Shown in pieces: positions 3,955 through 11,184 of a stretch of 11,522 nt of DNA. Source of the stretch: a bacterium (lineage in GTDB: Bacteria > Sysuimicrobiota > Sysuimicrobiia > Sysuimicrobiales > Kaftiobacteriaceae); contig JBIOWP010000144.1 in NCBI GenBank assembly GCA_044868695.1, forward strand, positions 1 to 11,522, read 5' to 3'. A model generated the notes under the pieces. It ran no database searches, had not been told where the DNA came from, and saw only the letters and a list, made by a program, of their open reading frames with translations. How positions within the stretch are numbered: position 1 is the stretch's first letter; each line of letters starts with the position of its first letter. The translations under genes were made by a program, and so were the position numbers.

Positions 3955-3986
3955 AAATGAAACCGACCACGGCGACCCGTGGCCGG
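3955..3986 (-). terminator. Intrinsic terminator (attenuator 3:4 hairpin) in the 5' leader of the ABC exporter operon
   Basis: Minus strand reads CCGGCCACGG-GTCG-CCGTGGTCGG-TTTCATTT: a 10-bp stem (one G-U) with a 4-nt loop and a U-rich tail, ending 24 nt before the ABC start codon. Confidence 0.75.
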
Positions 3987-4056
3987 GTTGACGCGCAACG
4001 GCCACGGGATCAGAGTCCGCCCGTGGCCGCAAGCCGGTGGAGACCGGAACTACTGC

Positions 4057-4116
4057 TTACAGATCACGGGGCGCACTCAGACGGACGGCAGAACCGAGCG
4101 GTACAATCGTGAACAC
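4057..4116 (-). CDS. Putative leader peptide, 19 aa (MFTIVPLGSAVRLSAPRDL)
   Basis: GTG at 4116-4114 preceded by AAGGGGG at 7-nt spacing; TAA at 4059-4057; lies between the promoter and the attenuator hairpins. It is below the ORF-track size cutoff. Confidence 0.5.
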   Translation of the reverse strand: MFTIVPLGSAVRLSAPRDL

Positions 4117-4150
4117 CGGTGCGCCCCCTTTCCATTAACCTGCGACCCCG

Positions 4151-4179
4151 ACAGTAGCAGAAACCCCCACCCCGGTCAA
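4151..4179 (-). promoter_or_regulatory. Sigma70-type promoter for the ABC exporter leader
   Basis: TTGACC (4179-4174), 17-nt spacer ending in TGC (extended -10), then TACTGT (4156-4151). The -35 overlaps the DinB stop codon. Predicted TSS about 4144. Confidence 0.7.
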
Positions 4180-4676
4180 GCCTGCCTGGGGCCCCGCGAG
4201 CCCGCACACAGCCGCTTCAGAACAAAAATCTGCGCGGCGTGGTAGCTGTCGTGCGTTGCGATGTCGACGGCCAGGTCAATGCCCCGATCGGTCTCACCCT
4301 CCGACCACACCTTGCCGACTGGCTCTCCCAACCGCGCGGCCGGCAACGCGCGGAGATCCGCCATCAGCCGTTCATGCGCCGCCTGGAGCTCCCGTCGCGC
4401 ATCAACCCAGCCCTGGGCCGTCGCCGGGACGGCGCGCCAGTCGGATGCCTCGTCATGCGTCCAGGGCCGGCCCGCGAGTTGTGAAGCCGCGGCATCCTTC
4501 CAGTAGGCCATGTGCAGCACGATTTCGGCGATCGTGTGCTGCTCCGGGTGCGGCCGCCAGTGGGCCGCCTCGACGGTCACGTCCGCGAGGCCGGGCAGGA
4601 CACCCTTGCCTGCCCAGTTGCGCTTGCGGTAGGTCTGGTCGCAGTGCTCGATGACCCACGGCAGGACGTCCGTCAT
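4176..4676 (-). CDS. DinB/YfiT superfamily protein (four-helix bundle, His triad), 166 aa
   Basis: HTIAEIVLHMAYW and HDSYHAAQI motifs supply the three metal-binding His typical of DinB_2. RBS GAGGGGG upstream of the ATG. Confidence 0.88.
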   Translation of the reverse strand: MTDVLPWVIEHCDQTYRKRNWAGKGVLPGLADVTVEAAHWRPHPEQHTIAEIVLHMAYWKDAAASQLAGRPWTHDEASDWRAVPATAQGWVDARRELQAAHERLMADLRALPAARLGEPVGKVWSEGETDRGIDLAVDIATHDSYHAAQIFVLKRLCAGSRGPRQA

Positions 4677-4738
4677 GGCCCCACCCCCTCGAGAATCTCC
4701 CGGCCGGCGCCAGTATCGAGCGCGCGCGGTCCACCGTC

Positions 4739-4754
4739 TGTGACGTCCGTCACA
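4739..4754. promoter_or_regulatory. CRP/FNR-family binding-site-like palindrome upstream of the DinB gene
   Basis: TGTGA-CGTCCG-TCACA matches the TGTGA-N6-TCACA core exactly. It is centred at -41.5 relative to a candidate -10 GATACT (4717-4712, minus). It is also part of a longer inverted repeat at 4731-4763. Confidence 0.5.
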
Positions 4755-4777
4755 TCACGGCGGCTGCCTTCGGGCGG

Positions 4778-6094
4778 TTACTCTCGGATAGTTTCGGGGT
4801 CGGGAGCCCCTCCACCGCTGGATCCCGGTGGAGGAAGGGCCTCGCGCGTCACAAGGGGGGTATCAGGGTAGAGCAGGTACCGCTGCCGCAGCGCGAGGAA
4901 CTGCTGCAGTCCCGGTTGCCACCGCGCGACGATGGCGGCTGCGCTGTCTCCCCGAAGGATCCCGAGGCGCACCTGCTGCGTGCCCCACACGCGGTCGAAC
5001 AGGTACTGGCCGCGCCGCGGACGCCAGAAGGTGAGCCTGCGTCCGTACATCTTGCGGATTTCAACCAGCACGTACACCGCCGTGGTGGAGGGCCGGTAGA
5101 CGGCCGGATCGGTCACGTGCAGCCGCACCCCTGACCAGATCCGGCCGGTCGTGGGATGGGGGATGGATGACGCACTGAAGATGACGCCGGGCAGGCGGTA
5201 CTGGTTCAGCCGTTCGGCCAGCGCCGCGCCGTCGATCCAGGGCGCCAGGATGACGCGGAAGCGGGAGTCGGTGCTCACGCCGTTCCAGAGCCCCGTCCCG
5301 TCGACCGCGCCCGTCGTCGCGTAGTAGTAGGGGCTGTCGTCGGTCAGCAGCCCGGGGGAGGGATTGGCCCACTGGAGGCCGGTGTCCGCCCACTGCATGC
5401 GGCGCGACCAGCCCTGCATCGGAACGACCTGCAGGTCCGCCCCGATCCGGAACGCCTGATTGTACAACTGCGCCAGTTCCCCGATCGTCATGCCGTGCAC
5501 GTACGGGATCGGGTACATCCCGATGAACGACCGGTACCGCGATTCGAGCACCGGGCCATCCACGATCATGCCGCCCATCGGATTGGGCCGGTCCAGGATC
5601 ACGACCGGCTTGTTGGATCGGCGGGCTGCGTCCATCGTCAGCGCCATCGTCGACGCGTAGGTGAACGGGCGTACGCCGACGTCCTGCAGGTCGATGACCA
5701 GCACGTCCACCAGCGACAGCATCCGCTTCGTCGGCTGCGTCACCCGGCCAAAGAGACTGTAGACGGGGGTCTGCGACGGCAGCAGATCAGGATCGGACAA
5801 CTCCATTCCCGAGCCGTTGAACCCGTGCTCCGGTGAAAACACGGCGGTCAGCCGTGCGTCAAGGAGCCCCGCCACGACGACGGCGGTGTGCCGGCCGTCG
5901 CGGGTAATCGCGGCGTGGTTGCTGACGACGCCGATCCGCCGGCCGACCAGCTCGGTCGCCGCGGTCTTGACGACATCGACACCGGGGGAGACATCGGAGT
6001 TCTGCGCCGGCACCGGCACGGCGAGCAGGCAAACCACAAGTGCGCCCGCACAGGGCGCAAGAAGCCGTCGGATGGTCCGGCGCGGTCCCCTCAT
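4778..6094 (-). CDS. namZ: Exo-beta-N-acetylmuramidase NamZ family (DUF1343/YbbC) protein with N-terminal signal peptide, 438 aa
   Basis: Motifs FSPEHG, VYSLFG, DLQDVGVRxFTY, LDRPNP, HGMTIGELA and W.NPSP. The N-terminus has a basic region, a hydrophobic stretch and a VPA cleavage-like site. Confidence 0.85.
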   Translation of the reverse strand: MRGPRRTIRRLLAPCAGALVVCLLAVPVPAQNSDVSPGVDVVKTAATELVGRRIGVVSNHAAITRDGRHTAVVVAGLLDARLTAVFSPEHGFNGSGMELSDPDLLPSQTPVYSLFGRVTQPTKRMLSLVDVLVIDLQDVGVRPFTYASTMALTMDAARRSNKPVVILDRPNPMGGMIVDGPVLESRYRSFIGMYPIPYVHGMTIGELAQLYNQAFRIGADLQVVPMQGWSRRMQWADTGLQWANPSPGLLTDDSPYYYATTGAVDGTGLWNGVSTDSRFRVILAPWIDGAALAERLNQYRLPGVIFSASSIPHPTTGRIWSGVRLHVTDPAVYRPSTTAVYVLVEIRKMYGRRLTFWRPRRGQYLFDRVWGTQQVRLGILRGDSAAAIVARWQPGLQQFLALRQRYLLYPDTPLVTREALPPPGSSGGGAPDPETIRE

Positions 6095-6135
6095 AATCTC
6101 GCCTGCAAGGCGATTTTGCCCGCGGTCAGCGCCCG

Positions 6136-6858
6136 CTAGTCGCGGCGCCCGATATACAACCCGCGACCAATCAACCCTTCGCTGTCAAACGACACGTCTA
6201 GCCCCGCGGCGCGGAACGCCCCGAGATATTCCTCGTGCGTAAACAGGCCAAGAGTGTGGTCTTCCGTAAACTCCGAAATTCCTTCTGGAGTCGCGACCAG
6301 GTAGTGAAAATGCAGCACGCTGAGACTGTCCTTGCGCGCGCTCGTGTTCATGCGGGCGATTTTCAGATCGGGCTGATCCACGAAAACCGCCCCCAGGTGA
6401 CCGGCCTCGAATCGCTCCGGCGTGATCCACGGCTCGACGAGCACCACGCCGCCCGGCGCGGTGTGCCGCGCAAACGTCCGGAGCGTCTGCGCCAAGCGCA
6501 CCACGGTGTGGACGTACCCGATCGAACTGAAGAGACACAGGACCGCATTGAAGGTCCGCCGGAGATCGAAGTCCACCATGTCCGCCTGGTGGAAGCGAAC
6601 TCCCGGACAGCGCCTCCGCGCGACCGCCAGCATCTGCGGGTCGACGTCCAGACCCGCGACCTGGTACCACTCGCGCAGTACGGCGAGGTGGCCGCCGGTT
6701 CCACACGCGACGTCCAGGAGGGACGTCCCCGGCGACCGCCTGCGCTGCTGAATCAGCGCGTGAATGCGCTGCGCTTCGTTGACGTAATCCTTGCCGGCCG
6801 CGGCGTAGATGGCGTCGTAGAACGCGACCGACTTGGTGAACATGCGCTCGTTTGTCAC
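6136..6858 (-). CDS. Class I SAM-dependent methyltransferase, TylM1/DesVI-like (dTDP-aminosugar N-methyltransferase fold), 240 aa
   Basis: YD..Y...GKDY, LLDVACGTG, DMVDFDL, CLFSSIGY, VEPW..PE.F, HYLVA, LFT.EEY..AF.AAGL and GRGLY.G. The GTG overlaps the apgM stop (TAGTG); an alternative ATG lies at 6843. Confidence 0.9.
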   Translation of the reverse strand: MTNERMFTKSVAFYDAIYAAAGKDYVNEAQRIHALIQQRRRSPGTSLLDVACGTGGHLAVLREWYQVAGLDVDPQMLAVARRRCPGVRFHQADMVDFDLRRTFNAVLCLFSSIGYVHTVVRLAQTLRTFARHTAPGGVVLVEPWITPERFEAGHLGAVFVDQPDLKIARMNTSARKDSLSVLHFHYLVATPEGISEFTEDHTLGLFTHEEYLGAFRAAGLDVSFDSEGLIGRGLYIGRRD

Positions 6859-8135
6859 TACTCCCTGGCCAGCTGAGTCAGCAGCGGCATGACGTCGACG
6901 CCAATCAACTGCCCGATCGCGCCGCGGGCTGCCTCCCGTTCGCCGAATGCCTTGGTGCCGTCGGGCGGAACACCCCCGCCGGAGATCAGCAGCGGAACGG
7001 GATCGGCGGAATGCCCCGCCACCGCGCAGGGGGTCGCGTGGTCGGCGGTCACGGCCACGATGGTGTCGTTAAGACGAATCTTGGGCAGTAGTTCGCCGAA
7101 GAAGGCCCGGTCGATGACCTCGATGACGTCTCGTTTGGCCTGCCAGTCCCCATCGTGCCCCGGCTCATCAGGACCCTTGAGGTGCAGGTACAGCCCGCCG
7201 TGGCGCGGGAGCTCGACGACCGCGCGTTCCGCCCACTGCCGGTACGCGCCCTCCCGGTCGCCGGCGCTGGGGGGCACCTCGATGATGGTCATCCCGAGCA
7301 GTTGTGAAATCCCTCGCTCCACCGGCATCTCGACAAAACAGCCGAACTCTACCCCGAACCGTTCCCGGATCGACGGCGCCTGCGGGAGATGATCGCCGGC
7401 ATCGCGCAGCAGAATGAGGTTGGCGGGCAGGTCGCCGCGCTCGCGCCTACGCCGGTTGGCCGGTTGCCCATCCAGCACCTCGCGGCTCTTGCGCATGAAC
7501 TCGTTCACCAGCTCCGCGGCCGTCCACGCCTCCGGGGTGTCGTCGAGCGGCTTGCATTCTTCCACCTCGGTGCCGGCATCGGCCTTCGCCACCCCGAGTC
7601 CTTCGATGCGCGCGTACGCCGGATCGGTGTTGGAAATCTTTGCGGACAGGCGGCCTTCTTTGGGATACAGCACCACCGCACAGCGGTGGCCGATGGACGC
7701 GCGTACCGCGACGCCCGCGGGCGCGGCGGTCAGGTGAACCTCGCGGTTCACCGCCTCGGCGAGCTCCTTCGCTTCGTCGGGACGGAGGTTGCGTCCCACC
7801 CGGCGGTCCACAATGGTCCAGCCGGTGCCGACGGTCGCGAAGTTCCCGCGCAGGGCGACGTCCCCTTCGTGAAACGGCAGCCCCGCCCCCAGCGCCTCCA
7901 GCGGCCCGCGGCCGGCGTGATAGCGCAGAGGGTCGTAGCCCAGAATGGCCATGACCGCCACGTCGGACTCCGGCGCGATGCCTTTGCCGACCGTGATCAC
8001 CGTTCCCTGGCGGCCCGCGGCTGCCAGGCGGTCGAGATGCGGCGTGTCGGCGGCCTCCAGCGGCGTGCGGTCGCCGAGTTCGCGCAGCGGGCGGTCGCCC
8101 AATCCGTCCAGGACCACGTATAGGATCCGCTTCAC
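6858..8135 (-). CDS. apgM: 2,3-BPG-independent phosphoglycerate mutase, archaeal/ApgM type (alkaline phosphatase superfamily), 425 aa
   Basis: LDGLGD, TPLEAADTP, P.SD phospho-Ser, GRGPLEALG, HLKGPDEPGHDG and TADHATPC..GHSADPVP. The start was reassigned to the GTG at 8135, which overlaps the dapF TGA (GTGA), instead of the ORF-track start at 8321. Confidence 0.85.
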   Translation of the reverse strand: MKRILYVVLDGLGDRPLRELGDRTPLEAADTPHLDRLAAAGRQGTVITVGKGIAPESDVAVMAILGYDPLRYHAGRGPLEALGAGLPFHEGDVALRGNFATVGTGWTIVDRRVGRNLRPDEAKELAEAVNREVHLTAAPAGVAVRASIGHRCAVVLYPKEGRLSAKISNTDPAYARIEGLGVAKADAGTEVEECKPLDDTPEAWTAAELVNEFMRKSREVLDGQPANRRRRERGDLPANLILLRDAGDHLPQAPSIRERFGVEFGCFVEMPVERGISQLLGMTIIEVPPSAGDREGAYRQWAERAVVELPRHGGLYLHLKGPDEPGHDGDWQAKRDVIEVIDRAFFGELLPKIRLNDTIVAVTADHATPCAVAGHSADPVPLLISGGGVPPDGTKAFGEREAARGAIGQLIGVDVMPLLTQLARE

Positions 8136-9001
8136 TCGCCGGCCTCTAGCAGCCCGACAAACCGTTTGCTCAGCCTGCCGGCATACACTTCGGTGGCAGG
8201 ACCGGTCATGCGGATCTCCCAATCGGCCGATACGGCGATCTCCAGGTCGCCGCCGTCCATCGCAACCGTGAGCGACCGGTCCACCAGCGCCTTGCGCACC
8301 GCCGCCGCCGCCACCGCGCACGCGCTGCTGCCGGAGGCAAGCGTCTCGCCGGCGCCGCGCTCCCAGATGCGCGCGGCGACCCGGGTGCGGGAGTGCACCT
8401 GGGCAAACTGTACGTTGGTCCGGTTGGGGAAGAGCGTGTGGCGTTCCAGCTGCGGGCCGAGCCGGTGCAGATCTACGCGGGCGAGATCGGGCACGAACAC
8501 CACGCAGTGCGGGTTCCCCACCGACACGGCGGTAATGGCCAGGCGCTGCCCGTTTACATCGATCGTCTCATCCACGACGTCCCGCGGCGGTCCCGCCACC
8601 GGAATCCGTTCGCTGCGAAACGTGGCCGGCCCCATTTCGACGGTGATGCGGTCCACCGACCGCCCGCGCAGGTGCAGCACGACTTCCACAACTCCGCCGG
8701 GTGTGTCCACGGTGAACCGGGTCTTGGTCGTCACACCGTGATCGTAGAGGTAGCGGGCAAAGATGCGCAGACCGTTGCCGCTCTTCTCCGCCTCGCTGCC
8801 GTCGGGGTTGTAGATGCGCAGGCCGAAGTCCGCCTTCTTGGACGGCGCCGCCGCCAGGATCCCGTCGGAGCCGACCCCCAGGTGCCGATCGCAGATCAGC
8901 CGGATCGAGCGCGCGGTGAGTGGAAACGACAGCGTCTTCGGATCAATGACGATGTAATCGTTCCCCAGCGCGTGCGACTTCACGAAACCATTGCGGTCCA
9001 T
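8132..9001 (-). CDS. dapF: Diaminopimelate epimerase family, Ser/Ser active-site variant, 289 aa
   Basis: FVKSHALGNDY, DRHLGVGSDG, NPDGSEAEKSGNG, VGNPH, FPNRTNV and WERGAGETLASGSS. Confidence 0.9.
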   Translation of the reverse strand: MDRNGFVKSHALGNDYIVIDPKTLSFPLTARSIRLICDRHLGVGSDGILAAAPSKKADFGLRIYNPDGSEAEKSGNGLRIFARYLYDHGVTTKTRFTVDTPGGVVEVVLHLRGRSVDRITVEMGPATFRSERIPVAGPPRDVVDETIDVNGQRLAITAVSVGNPHCVVFVPDLARVDLHRLGPQLERHTLFPNRTNVQFAQVHSRTRVAARIWERGAGETLASGSSACAVAAAAVRKALVDRSLTVAMDGGDLEIAVSADWEIRMTGPATEVYAGRLSKRFVGLLEAGE

Positions 9002-9010
9002 ACGCTGAGG

Positions 9011-10153
9011 TCATTTCGGTAGGTCGACAGTGCCTCCCTGTGGTCGACACTGCTGCCGCGACCGGCGGAGGGCACTCCGAACAATCCGCTCTAACAACTC
9101 GGGGAACTCAATACCTGCAGCTTTGGCTGCATCGGGCAGCAGGCTGGTGGGCGTCATGCCGGGGATGGTGTTGACCTCGAGCACCACGAGGTCCTTACCG
9201 CGGGCGATCATGTCCACACGCGACATGCCCTCGCACCCCAGCGCCTGGTGGGCCCGGAGCGCCAGCGCCTGCGCACGGGCGGCGACCTCCGGTGTCACGC
9301 GCGCGGGGATGATGTGATCGCTGCCGCCGGCGCCGTACTTCGCGCGGTAATCATAGAACTCAGCATGCGGGACGATCTCGATCAACGGCAGGGTGACCGG
9401 TTCGCCGGTGTCCGGGTCGTCGACCAGACCGCAAGTGATCTCGGTGCCGCGGACGTACTCTTCGATGAGCACGACCGGACCGTAGGCCGAGGCCGCCTCG
9501 ATCGCCGGATCCAGCCCGGCGCCGTCGTGAACCAACGACACGCCGATGCTGCTGCCGCCTGCATTGGGCTTCACGACGCAGGGAAACCCCAGGTGCTGCG
9601 CGACCTGCTGGTGGAGATGCGTCCGATCGCCCTCGCGGTCGGTGCGAACGCTGAGGTAGGCCGGGACCGGAATGCGATGCCACTCGAACAGCTGCCGGCT
9701 GCGCAGCTTGTCCATGCCCAGTGCGCTGGCCAGCACCCCGGAGCCGGTGTAGGCCACTCCCAGCAGTTCCAGCAGTCCCTGCACGGTCCCGTCTTCCCCA
9801 AACGGCCCGTGCATCGCGATAAACGCCACATCGACCTCGTCGCGCGCGACCGCTTGGTCGAAACTAACGAGAGCCGGGCTCCGGGCCCCGGGCTCCGGCG
9901 AACTGCCGGACTCCGGGCTCCGGGCTTCGAGCGTGCGATGTGAACGGGGCCCGGTGCCCGACGCCCGGTGCCCGTCCGGCAGCGGCCTCAGATCCGGGCG
10001 CGGCAGCCAGCGGCCCTCCGTCGTGATCTCGACGGGAAGCACGTCGTAGCGCTGCGGATCCAGCGCGGTAACGATCTGGCTGCCCGTCGCCAGCGAGACG
10101 TCGCGCTCCGGCGACGGTCCGCCCATGAGCACCGCCACGCGCACGCGCCTCAC
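9011..10153 (-). CDS. ddl: D-alanine--D-alanine ligase (ATP-grasp), 380 aa
   Basis: VAVLMGGPSPERDVSL, MHGPFGEDG, MDK, VVKP..GGSSIG, FYDYRAKY, SRVD and LEVNTIPGMTPTSLLP. The start was reassigned to the GTG at 10153, which overlaps the gntR TGA (GTGA), instead of the ORF-track start at 10465. Confidence 0.93.
   Translation of the reverse strand: MRRVRVAVLMGGPSPERDVSLATGSQIVTALDPQRYDVLPVEITTEGRWLPRPDLRPLPDGHRASGTGPRSHRTLEARSPESGSSPEPGARSPALVSFDQAVARDEVDVAFIAMHGPFGEDGTVQGLLELLGVAYTGSGVLASALGMDKLRSRQLFEWHRIPVPAYLSVRTDREGDRTHLHQQVAQHLGFPCVVKPNAGGSSIGVSLVHDGAGLDPAIEAASAYGPVVLIEEYVRGTEITCGLVDDPDTGEPVTLPLIEIVPHAEFYDYRAKYGAGGSDHIIPARVTPEVAARAQALALRAHQALGCEGMSRVDMIARGKDLVVLEVNTIPGMTPTSLLPDAAKAAGIEFPELLERIVRSALRRSRQQCRPQGGTVDLPK
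9875..9974. repeat. Two inverted arrays of 7-bp repeats inside ddl
   Basis: CGGGCTC-like units at 9875, 9882, 9889, 9907, 9914 and 9921; opposite-orientation nnGCCCG units at 9947, 9954, 9961 and 9968. Confidence 0.75.
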
Positions 10154-11148
10154 GCGGTTTTTTCCACCCGGCGGCGCGGGGTCGCCTCCCGGCGGGCCGG
10201 CCGCCAGGCCCTGATGCGGGCTTCCAGCAGCGATACGGCTCCTTCGCTCAACACGCTGGCAAACGGAATGACCCTCGCCTGCGCCGGGATCTTCCCGGCG
10301 AGCCGCTCGAGCACTTTCGGCGATGCCAGCACGACATCGGCGCGGCGCAGCATCTCTTGGAGGCGTCCTTCCTGGTGCAGCGTCGCGGTCATCAAGTTGG
10401 GCCGCTGGATCCCGACCGCGCGGATGGATCGCTCCTTGCTGCGGACGCCCTCCTTCGTTGCACACACCAGCGCGACCTTCGCCCGCTTCGGGAGCTGCGC
10501 GACCGCTTCGAGCGTGGCGAGTTCCGGCATCGCCATCAGCCCGACGACCTCATGCCGGGGCAGCCGGCGGCGCACCTCCTCTACATGAAACATCGTCGTC
10601 GCGACGAGATCGAGCGACGGTGCGATGCGGGGGAGGTCGGTCAGGAGCACCGGCACGAGCGGGACCCGGAGCTGGTTCGCCAGCTGCCGGGCGAAATAGG
10701 AGAGATCAGATGGATTGCATTCCACGAACCCGACCCGGGGGGTCTTCCCTCTCCCGAGGGCGGCGGAGCGCCCGACAATCAGCGCGTGCAGTTCGGCTTC
10801 TCCGACCCCGTGCGCGGCGGAGAGATCCAGCAGCCGGTCAATCGTCTCCGCGAGAGCTTCGCCGCCGCCGGATACGGGGAGGTCAGCGACGAACGTCCCC
10901 CGTCCCCGGGTGGTCACCAGCGAGCCGCCGCGTTCCAGCGCGGCATAGACCTTAGCCACGGTGTTGCGGTTGACCCGCAGGAAGCCGGCCAGCACCCGCA
11001 CGGGCGGCAGCCGCTCGCCGGCGCGCAGCCGGCCCCCGCGGATGAGGGCCAGCAGCTGCTCCGCGATCTGGTCGGCGATCGGCAGCGGCCCGTCGCGGCG
11101 GACCCGCAGCGGGAAGGGGTCAATTGTCCTAGCGCGAATAGGACACAT
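10150..11148 (-). CDS. GntR family transcriptional regulator (YtrA-like wHTH plus ~200-aa C-terminal alpha/beta domain), about 332 aa
   Basis: PIADQIAEQL...G.L.AGERLPPVRVLA..L.VNRNTVAKVY..LE..G......GRGTFV. The start was reassigned to the in-frame ATG at 11148 because the ORF-track TTG at 11184 is the -35 box. Confidence 0.9.
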   Translation of the reverse strand: MCPIRARTIDPFPLRVRRDGPLPIADQIAEQLLALIRGGRLRAGERLPPVRVLAGFLRVNRNTVAKVYAALERGGSLVTTRGRGTFVADLPVSGGGEALAETIDRLLDLSAAHGVGEAELHALIVGRSAALGRGKTPRVGFVECNPSDLSYFARQLANQLRVPLVPVLLTDLPRIAPSLDLVATTMFHVEEVRRRLPRHEVVGLMAMPELATLEAVAQLPKRAKVALVCATKEGVRSKERSIRAVGIQRPNLMTATLHQEGRLQEMLRRADVVLASPKVLERLAGKIPAQARVIPFASVLSEGAVSLLEARIRAWRPARREATPRRRVEKTA

Positions 11149-11155
11149 TAGGACA
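11125..11155. promoter_or_regulatory. Putative GntR (YtrA-type) operator
   Basis: Perfect palindrome TGTCCTA-N7-TAGGACA at 11125-11145, plus a third TAGGACA half-site at 11149-11155, overlapping the predicted TSS and start codon. Confidence 0.75.
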
Positions 11156-11184
11156 ATCCTACCAGCCCCGCCCGCCGCCGTCAA
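11156..11184 (-). promoter_or_regulatory. Sigma70-type promoter of the gntR-ddl-dapF-apgM operon
   Basis: TTGACG (11184-11179), 17-nt spacer ending in TGG (extended -10), then TAGGAT (11161-11156). Predicted TSS about 11149-11148. Confidence 0.78.

Follow-up and report, generated by a model that had tools for sequence, protein, structure and literature searches.

Transcription attenuators of the trp type use four leader segments that pair as 1:2, 2:3 or 3:4, and a ribosome at the stop codon of the leader peptide covers segment 2, the place held by strand B in the leader described here. In the bmrB leader of Bacillus subtilis, as described, the alternation of an anti-antiterminator, an antiterminator and a terminator ahead of the heterodimeric ABC exporter bmrCD depends on an upstream ORF (uORF), and the untranslated leader is predicted to be OFF (PMC4191407). 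In the accounts given of B. subtilis vmlR (PMC9226507) and of Listeria Rli53 and Rli59 (PMC8079631), the first hairpin holds a uORF, the antiterminator is released when a ribosome stalls at the uORF start, and the targets are ABC-F or ABC transporter genes. The WhiB7/WblC regulon of Actinomycetota is described as including ABC transporters, ABC ATPases, 16 GNATs and an RsgA paralogue, with wblC itself under uORF attenuation (PMC7157823).

The window, by which we mean the whole stretch of 11,522 nucleotides that was analysed, carries a leader with the features of this class: a promoter, a short uORF with its Shine-Dalgarno sequence in the leader, mutually exclusive pairings, and a target of the resistance or ribosome-protection kind. 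Its elements and neighbors are as follows.

4676-4176, minus strand: DinB_2 gene upstream of the leader; its stop codon overlaps the -35 hexamer
4179-4151, minus strand: candidate sigma70-type promoter; -35 TTGACC at 4179-4174, 17-nt spacer, -10 TACTGT at 4156-4151
4128-4119, minus strand: arm A, GGGGGCGCAC; Shine-Dalgarno sequence and spacer of the uORF, and 5' strand of the putative anti-antiterminator
4116-4057, minus strand: uORF of 19 codons, peptide MFTIVPLGSAVRLSAPRDL; GTG start, TAA ending at 4057
4076-4065, minus strand: switch strand B/B', GTGCGCCCCGTG; 3' end of the uORF, with A or seg1 as its partner
4029-4020, minus strand: seg1, which is arm C; provides the 5' strand of the hairpin conserved in the family, and pairs with B in the predicted antiterminator
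4008-3999, minus strand: seg2, which is arm D; provides the 3' strand of that hairpin
3985-3976, minus strand: seg3, identical to seg1; provides the 5' strand of a second hairpin, and pairs with seg2 in the second antiterminator that is predicted
3972-3963, minus strand: seg4, followed by the U-rich tail TTTCATTTCT at 3962-3953; predicted working intrinsic terminator of the window copy
3930-2194, minus strand: ABC exporter subunit 1, 578 aa; ABC_membrane and ABC_tran domains, Walker B LDE, degenerate signature LSAGE
2197-416, minus strand: ABC exporter subunit 2, 593 aa; Walker B IDD without the catalytic Glu, signature LSGGQ

An earlier note on this DNA had already placed the promoter, the ribosome binding site, the GTG-initiated ORF of 19 codons and seg1 to seg4 where we find them, and it had correctly described seg1 and seg3 as identical and seg2 as their complement. 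The promoter has an extended -10 element (TG precedes TACTGT, and the spacer ends in TGC); TTGACC-17-TACTGT was not listed by a consensus promoter scan of the window because it matches only 8 of the 12 consensus positions. Judged from its position, transcription would start at about 4144. GGAAAGGGGG precedes the GTG of the uORF at 4116, and the uORF stop lies 15 nt past the B core and 27 nt upstream of the start of seg1. One heptamer recurs, almost unchanged, in arms A and C, and both have B as their complement. Only 3 places in the 2.59-Mb genome have a 10-mer, its complement and the same 10-mer within 70 nt, and none of 100 order-1 Markov windows has such a triple. An unrelated element of about 50 bp with three alternating 10-mer arms is present in two copies, at G000:C45:16467-16515 and G000:C143:6976-7024.

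Judged by its motifs, the exporter pair is a putative heterodimer with one degenerate site; subunit 1 resembles chains of the TM288, Sav1866 and TmrA types, with scores below all the NCBIfam cut-offs shown. Directly 5' of the exporter Shine-Dalgarno sequence, GACCCGTG (3948-3941, minus strand) is exactly complementary to CACGGGTC of seg3, which might give read-through RNA a further, translational layer. Upstream, positions 4176-11184 of the minus strand hold a co-oriented run of genes for a GntR regulator, a D-Ala-D-Ala ligase, a DAP epimerase, a phosphoglycerate mutase, a methyltransferase, NamZ and DinB_2, and read-through from this run would also reach the terminators of the leader.

Like the bmrB leader, the window leader stands before a heterodimeric exporter and is predicted to be OFF when untranslated, and some of the targets of its relatives are of the same kinds as those of vmlR, Rli53 and Rli59. 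None of the features of homology to the bmrB leader was found in it. The bmrB uORF is given as 53 codons with the terminator inside (PMC4191407), whereas the uORFs here have 13 to 33 codons and the terminator follows downstream, in the window at least 27 nt past the 19-codon uORF. Here the Shine-Dalgarno sequence itself lies within the putative anti-antiterminator, unlike that of bmrB and unlike that of vmlR, which is described as single-stranded (PMC9226507), and the uORFs of vmlR and Rli53 are given as only 3 codons long (PMC9226507, PMC8079631). While the mechanism is familiar, vmlR, Rli53 and Rli59 are each tied to one gene in these accounts; here one homologous leader precedes genes of at least seven families in two phyla. 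The output of the WblC regulon under translation stress is similar, but there a single attenuator controls a transcription factor and thereby a regulon, as described, whereas here a copy of the attenuator precedes each target operon. Attenuators of the trp, his and ilv type differ in another respect, in that no control-codon run and no biosynthetic targets are found here.

Rfam 15 gave nothing at gathering threshold in the window leader (and two chance matches elsewhere in the window), and at ten homologous loci it gave only an unrelated T-box outside the leader. No published description of the leader was found in the mostly open-access literature searched; the main text of PMC8632094 makes no mention of Chloroflexi, and the supplement of PMC11109978, which holds many unnamed motifs, may bear on the novelty of the leader. 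The earlier note had inferred that the element is independent and probably uncatalogued. The second part stands as far as Rfam 15 goes, while the first gives way to a family with 97 non-redundant examples.

To describe this family we used a covariance model, R1, made from an alignment of 43 examples, whose structure contains A:B and C:D only. The genome searches with R1 scored first-look candidates only and lost weak matches; on this basis matches were found in 21 of 94 genomes of the same phylum, 11 of 150 Chloroflexota genomes, 29 of 150 genomes from the class of an Anaerolineales genome, and 6 published genomes out of 101 from the class of a Ktedonobacterales genome, with a maximum of six leader copies in one genome. 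No match was found in 150 Bacillota genomes. Five further genome sets gave none in four and one weak match in the fifth (L308:1501-1658, minus strand, E 0.003), in a record titled Latescibacterota and upstream of a 142-aa ORF without a Pfam family. A pattern scan of metagenomes, in which 80 of the 120 returned stretches were examined, lost 65 to the terminator filter, three of which were recovered later by regex or model.

The earlier note had raised the possibility that the repeats belong to a genome-wide REP family. A REP-like repeat was rejected since the genome of the window holds a single copy of the leader: R1 gives one significant match there, and a loose A..B regex finds, besides the window, coding-region noise only.

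The exporter is present in 22 of 101 genomes near that of the window and in 80 named contigs. Its closest named records (79-88% identity) carry the titles Armatimonadetes, Bacillati ANGP1 or bacterium MAGs; CSP1-3 is presumably the name for this group; the more distant named records are mostly Chloroflexota. Among the 20 orthologous loci of the same phylum with upstream DNA, 19 have an R1 match and one leader is degenerate; seven of the 20 leaders show two hairpins by eye and the others one. Among the more distant exporter loci with upstream DNA, 23 of 61 have the leader and 38 do not. The degenerate copy (L018, G019:C36) precedes an orthologous exporter and has recognizable A, B and C:D by eye, with no standard start codon and no model match. 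At L009 and L028, in the stretch between B and the uORF stop region, a self-folding insertion of about 65-70 bp lies inside B, and the B core occurs in it once more. DinB_2 is not part of the conserved unit, as other genes occupy its place in many relatives; at L010 a namZ-like gene is followed directly by only a 3' remnant of dinB, which looks deleted, and the leader is intact.

Leaders in front of different gene families are homologous to each other. An exporter leader and a RIO1 leader from one genome align with a score of 142, where shuffled sequences reach at most 27; for the weakest of the pairs tested the two values were 18 and 15. The nearest neighbors among the leaders mostly share the class of their target, so spread to new genes looks old and occasional.

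For quantitative tests we reduced 111 elements to 97 members by removing 12 that were more than 90% alike, one without a parsed start and one partial match. The members are kin and were picked by motif or model, so the p-values that follow overstate significance. The earlier note had proposed aligning orthologous leaders for covariation; in the training alignment 94.6% of the cells of A:B and C:D are paired, and the covariation score is 0.213 versus 0.138 (0 of 500 shuffles). At one A:B position the compensatory changes are A-U in 30 and G-C in 7. Duplexes formed with a member's own partner were more stable than those with swapped partners, both for A:B (-19.6 versus -17.1; 0 of 2000 permutations) and for B:C, which is outside the structure of R1 (-20.8 versus -18.6; 0 of 2000 permutations). 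In the A:C control, own partners were no better than swapped ones (1748 of 2000 permutations).

These covarying pairs bear on one alternative, namely that seg1 to seg4 are plain tandem terminators of the GntR-to-dinB operon and that the exporter is driven by a weak constitutive promoter. No terminator-like site is listed between dinB and the leader, and folding of the full-length leader favors both hairpins, as this explanation would have it. On the other hand, the promoter lies upstream of the hairpins, A:B and B:C covary, and the unit is kept while the upstream gene varies and recurs before unrelated genes. We regard this alternative as extremely improbable.

The position of the uORF relative to B is also conserved. 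The uORFs start with ATG in 82 members, GTG in 14 and TTG in one, and the first in-frame stop falls within -6 to +25 nt of B in 94 of the 97, exactly at +15 in 43; the same count in the other two frames is 25/97 and 28/97. The distance from stop to terminator is at least 11 nt in all 97. A promoter pattern precedes 88 of the 97 members (shuffled control 3.3/97). Because a loose promoter was a selection criterion for the first 48 examples and R1 contains no promoter, the independent figure is 49 of the 56 model matches.

The cores GGCGCAC, GTGCGCC and GCCACGG are strongly conserved across two phyla, a degree of conservation that could speak for a switch controlled by a protein or a ligand (a protein-binding leader or a riboswitch) in which the uORF is incidental. 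Against such control, the conserved letters are confined to the pairing strands, the Shine-Dalgarno sequence and the start codon, with loops that differ in length and sequence; the stop position is conserved in the uORF frame only, and there is no match in Rfam. This makes protein or ligand control very improbable.

The uORF peptide is not conserved. No conserved leader peptide was found among the members, B is read in all three frames (63, 24 and 10 members), and no run of a single amino acid occurs, the most frequent residue being R at 12.4%. Macrolide-specific arrest was tried as a candidate and rejected, as R/K-x-R/K precedes B in only 24 of the 97. It could be speculated that RSAP, encoded across B in 40 of the 97 peptides, is an intrinsic pause like RAGP of SecM that parks the ribosome on B and so enforces the OFF state. 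Its Arg codons (CGG 18, CGA 14, CGT 11, CGC 1) and the presence of CG at that place in 44 of the 63 frame-0 members versus 7 of the 34 others would fit. The window itself, however, has LSAP, B is in other frames in 34 members, the RNA pairing accounts for the SAP, A is often the partner of the wobble base, and the count is inflated by kinship; RSAP has no occurrence in the accessible part of PMC12992588. We therefore consider a nascent-peptide pause quite improbable.

Given the observed segments, their complementarity and covariation, the stop position and the downstream classes, we think it probable that the leader is a transcription attenuator that works in the manner of bmrB and vmlR, with read-through once a ribosome is held up in the first part of the uORF. 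With no ribosome, A:B would form first, followed by seg1:seg2 and seg3:seg4, and transcription would stop near 3955. A ribosome that finishes the uORF would sit on B at the stop and leave seg1 free, so that the outcome would again be OFF. A ribosome held on the first codons would mask A, and seg1 would be captured by B as it emerges; B:seg1 would leave seg2 to pair with seg3, the U-tailed hairpin would be delayed, and polymerase would read on. A:B would thus serve as anti-antiterminator and B:seg1 as antiterminator, and the choice between them would couple the ribosome to the terminator. In members with a single hairpin the early-stall route would end at B:C.

This scheme modifies the earlier proposal of a ribosome-sensing attenuator built on 1:2, 2:3 and 3:4. 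The architecture of a uORF-linked transcription attenuator is upheld, but those pairings do not themselves sense the ribosome, because seg1 begins 27 nt past the stop, beyond its reach. What had been recognized was the last relay; the A:B hairpin and the B:seg1 helix are the upstream core that was missed.

The predicted energies of the competing helices of the window are -28.9 kcal/mol for A:B (A 4128-4119, B core 4076-4068), -27.9 for B/B':seg1 (including bases after seg1), -23.5 for 1:2, -21.2 for 2:3 and -20.6 for 3:4. Seg3:seg4, with 10 pairs, is the strongest of the seven terminator-like sites in the window. The leader as a whole, whose folding the earlier note had put forward as a check, folds no better than its shuffles (z -1.11), so the case is based on conservation and not on stability.

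We then mimicked a ribosome by forcing its footprint (-12 to +15) to be single-stranded, a treatment that ignores ribosome bulk. In nascent window RNA without a ribosome, the predicted probabilities at 3990 were 1.00 for A:B and 0.98 for 1:2, and with a ribosome at the stop 1:2 was about 1.0. With a ribosome on codons 1-3 the model gave 0.75 for B':seg1, 0.00 for 1:2 and 0.95 for 2:3. When it was on codons 5-9, A:B re-formed in this footprint-only model; the modelled ON zone is thus codons 1-3, and steric exclusion of A:B could widen it.

The 2:3 relay result is sensitive to the method. With a start at 4144 and a ribosome at the stop, 2:3 was predicted at 0.01-0.08 for RNA ends 3976-3968; at the RNA 3' end 3966 it was high in every ribosome state, and with a start at 4146 it was high in all states already from 3970-3968. 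A looser measure of 2:3 gave 0.52 with no ribosome, 1.00 at codon 1 and 0.88 at the stop. Forcing B to be unpaired had a mixed outcome, with 2:3 still at 0.94 at codon 1. Forcing seg1 to be unpaired gave 2:3 at 0.95 in all states, in line with the earlier prediction that loss of seg1 makes this copy constitutively ON, at least in silico.

Across the 97 members, B:C exceeded 0.5 in the model just after C emerged in 90 with a ribosome on codon 1, in 46 without any ribosome, and in 9 with a ribosome at the stop, the last figure being built in by the footprint. At full-length equilibrium with a ribosome on codon 1 the predicted terminator was still above 0.5 in 83 of the 97, and the full switch appeared in only 11; in the window 3:4 was predicted to return to 0.84-1.00 once seg4 had emerged. 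As the terminator wins at equilibrium, read-through must be kinetic and would need the helix formed first to last beyond the termination window. Known attenuators are likewise assumed to need an early helix that persists through this window, as discussed in PMC9226507.

Only one hairpin was detected in 79 of the 97 members, so seg1:seg2 is the terminator of the family. A second hairpin of the seg3:seg4 type is found in 18 members with several classes of target. In the 10 nt after the first hairpin, tandem members have 5.2 U versus 7.4, and the window has TTGCGCGT after its first hairpin and TTTCATTT after its second. This poor U tract after seg2 suggests that the first hairpin here is likely a relay and not the working terminator. 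Since the second, U-tailed hairpin must be overcome and the duplication itself creates seg2:seg3, the relay of the earlier note is favored for such copies. The modelling gives it mixed backing: a clear ribosome-dependent rise of 2:3 was seen in only 5 of the 17 other tandem members, and seg3 has a mismatch in close relatives. As seg1:seg2 is the terminator of the family, the earlier expectation that loss of seg2 locks the leader OFF would apply to tandem copies like that of the window (3:4 at 0.99 in silico with seg2 forced unpaired) and not to single-hairpin members.

R1 yielded 56 new matches: 5 without an ORF in the available DNA, one scanned before (RsgA) and 50 whose downstream genes were scanned. 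All 50 fall in seven families, namely the exporter family of the window (11, including two training loci), another exporter family that shares 24-29% identity (10), GNAT acetyltransferases (12), RIO1 kinases (6), ABC-2/DrrA-like proteins (6), RsgA (3) and ABC-F (2). The full-length ABC-F passes NF000355 (438 versus 380), two RIO1 proteins resemble PA4780-type kinases in NCBIfam with scores below the cut-off, and among eight metagenome ORFs five pass TIGR00157 (RsgA), one is a truncated partial match and two have no family. The six matches in the Ktedonobacteria class sit before ABC exporters. Biosynthetic or aminoacyl-tRNA synthetase genes were absent among the 50. These classes would fit translation stress, with drug substrates being putative.

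For the attenuator reading, the most likely signal would be translation-inhibiting antibiotics or similar ribosome stress. The same attenuator might instead answer to slow translation in general, through amino-acid or energy starvation, immature 30S subunits or cold. RsgA and RIO1 among the targets would be the telling ones, and an unconserved peptide with B read in three frames means that any stall could act; drug-free intrinsic activation of such leaders is reported for B. subtilis in PMC13689557. Yet 41 of the 50 targets are exporters, acetyltransferases or ABC-F, the usual classes of drug defence, and neither biosynthetic or aminoacyl-tRNA synthetase targets nor an amino-acid run accompany the leader, so we hold slow translation as the signal to be unlikely.

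Sequence comparison identifies a real, conserved leader, uncatalogued in Rfam 15, with a presumably known mechanism and a new multi-target family that includes a duplicated-terminator variant. The recurring leader is probably a single switch common to its loci, and would activate genes for exporters, acetyltransferases and ribosome-associated enzymes when ribosomes stall. Tentatively, and with somewhat more doubt than belief, we propose that Chloroflexota and the candidate phylum of the window possess a translation-stress regulon without a transcription factor, in which one ribosome-sensing leader was copied before its targets (exporters, acetyltransferases, ABC-F, RsgA and RIO1-like kinases), with relay chains of duplicated terminators, two here and about five in G019, to tune it.

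If this proposal is true, bacterial RIO1 kinases and a form of RsgA would act in small-subunit rescue or maturation under antibiotic stress, and the leader would be a sequence tag for as yet unrecognized resistance genes in uncultured bacteria of soil and sludge. Eukaryotic and archaeal relatives of the bacterial RIO1-like kinases act in small-subunit maturation. If the leader does sense stalled ribosomes, it would list candidate genes for resistance and ribosome rescue in lineages not yet grown and allow the role of RIO1-like kinases in bacteria to be tested directly. It would also be a case of an attenuator that gains terminators and stays inducible, because the duplicated hairpin brings its own antiterminator.

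Several loci have unusual arrangements. A single leader precedes five consecutive GNAT genes at L319:359-4192, RsgA is followed by an MFS transporter at L321, and at L325 MFS and GNAT genes come after ABC-2 genes. In G019:C140 (L253:1380-3060) a paralogous exporter lies behind a promoter, an A/uORF/B unit that has diverged and a tandem series of about five GGCC..GGCC hairpins; this contig is an inverted duplication around the tandem-hairpin point, possibly an assembly artefact.
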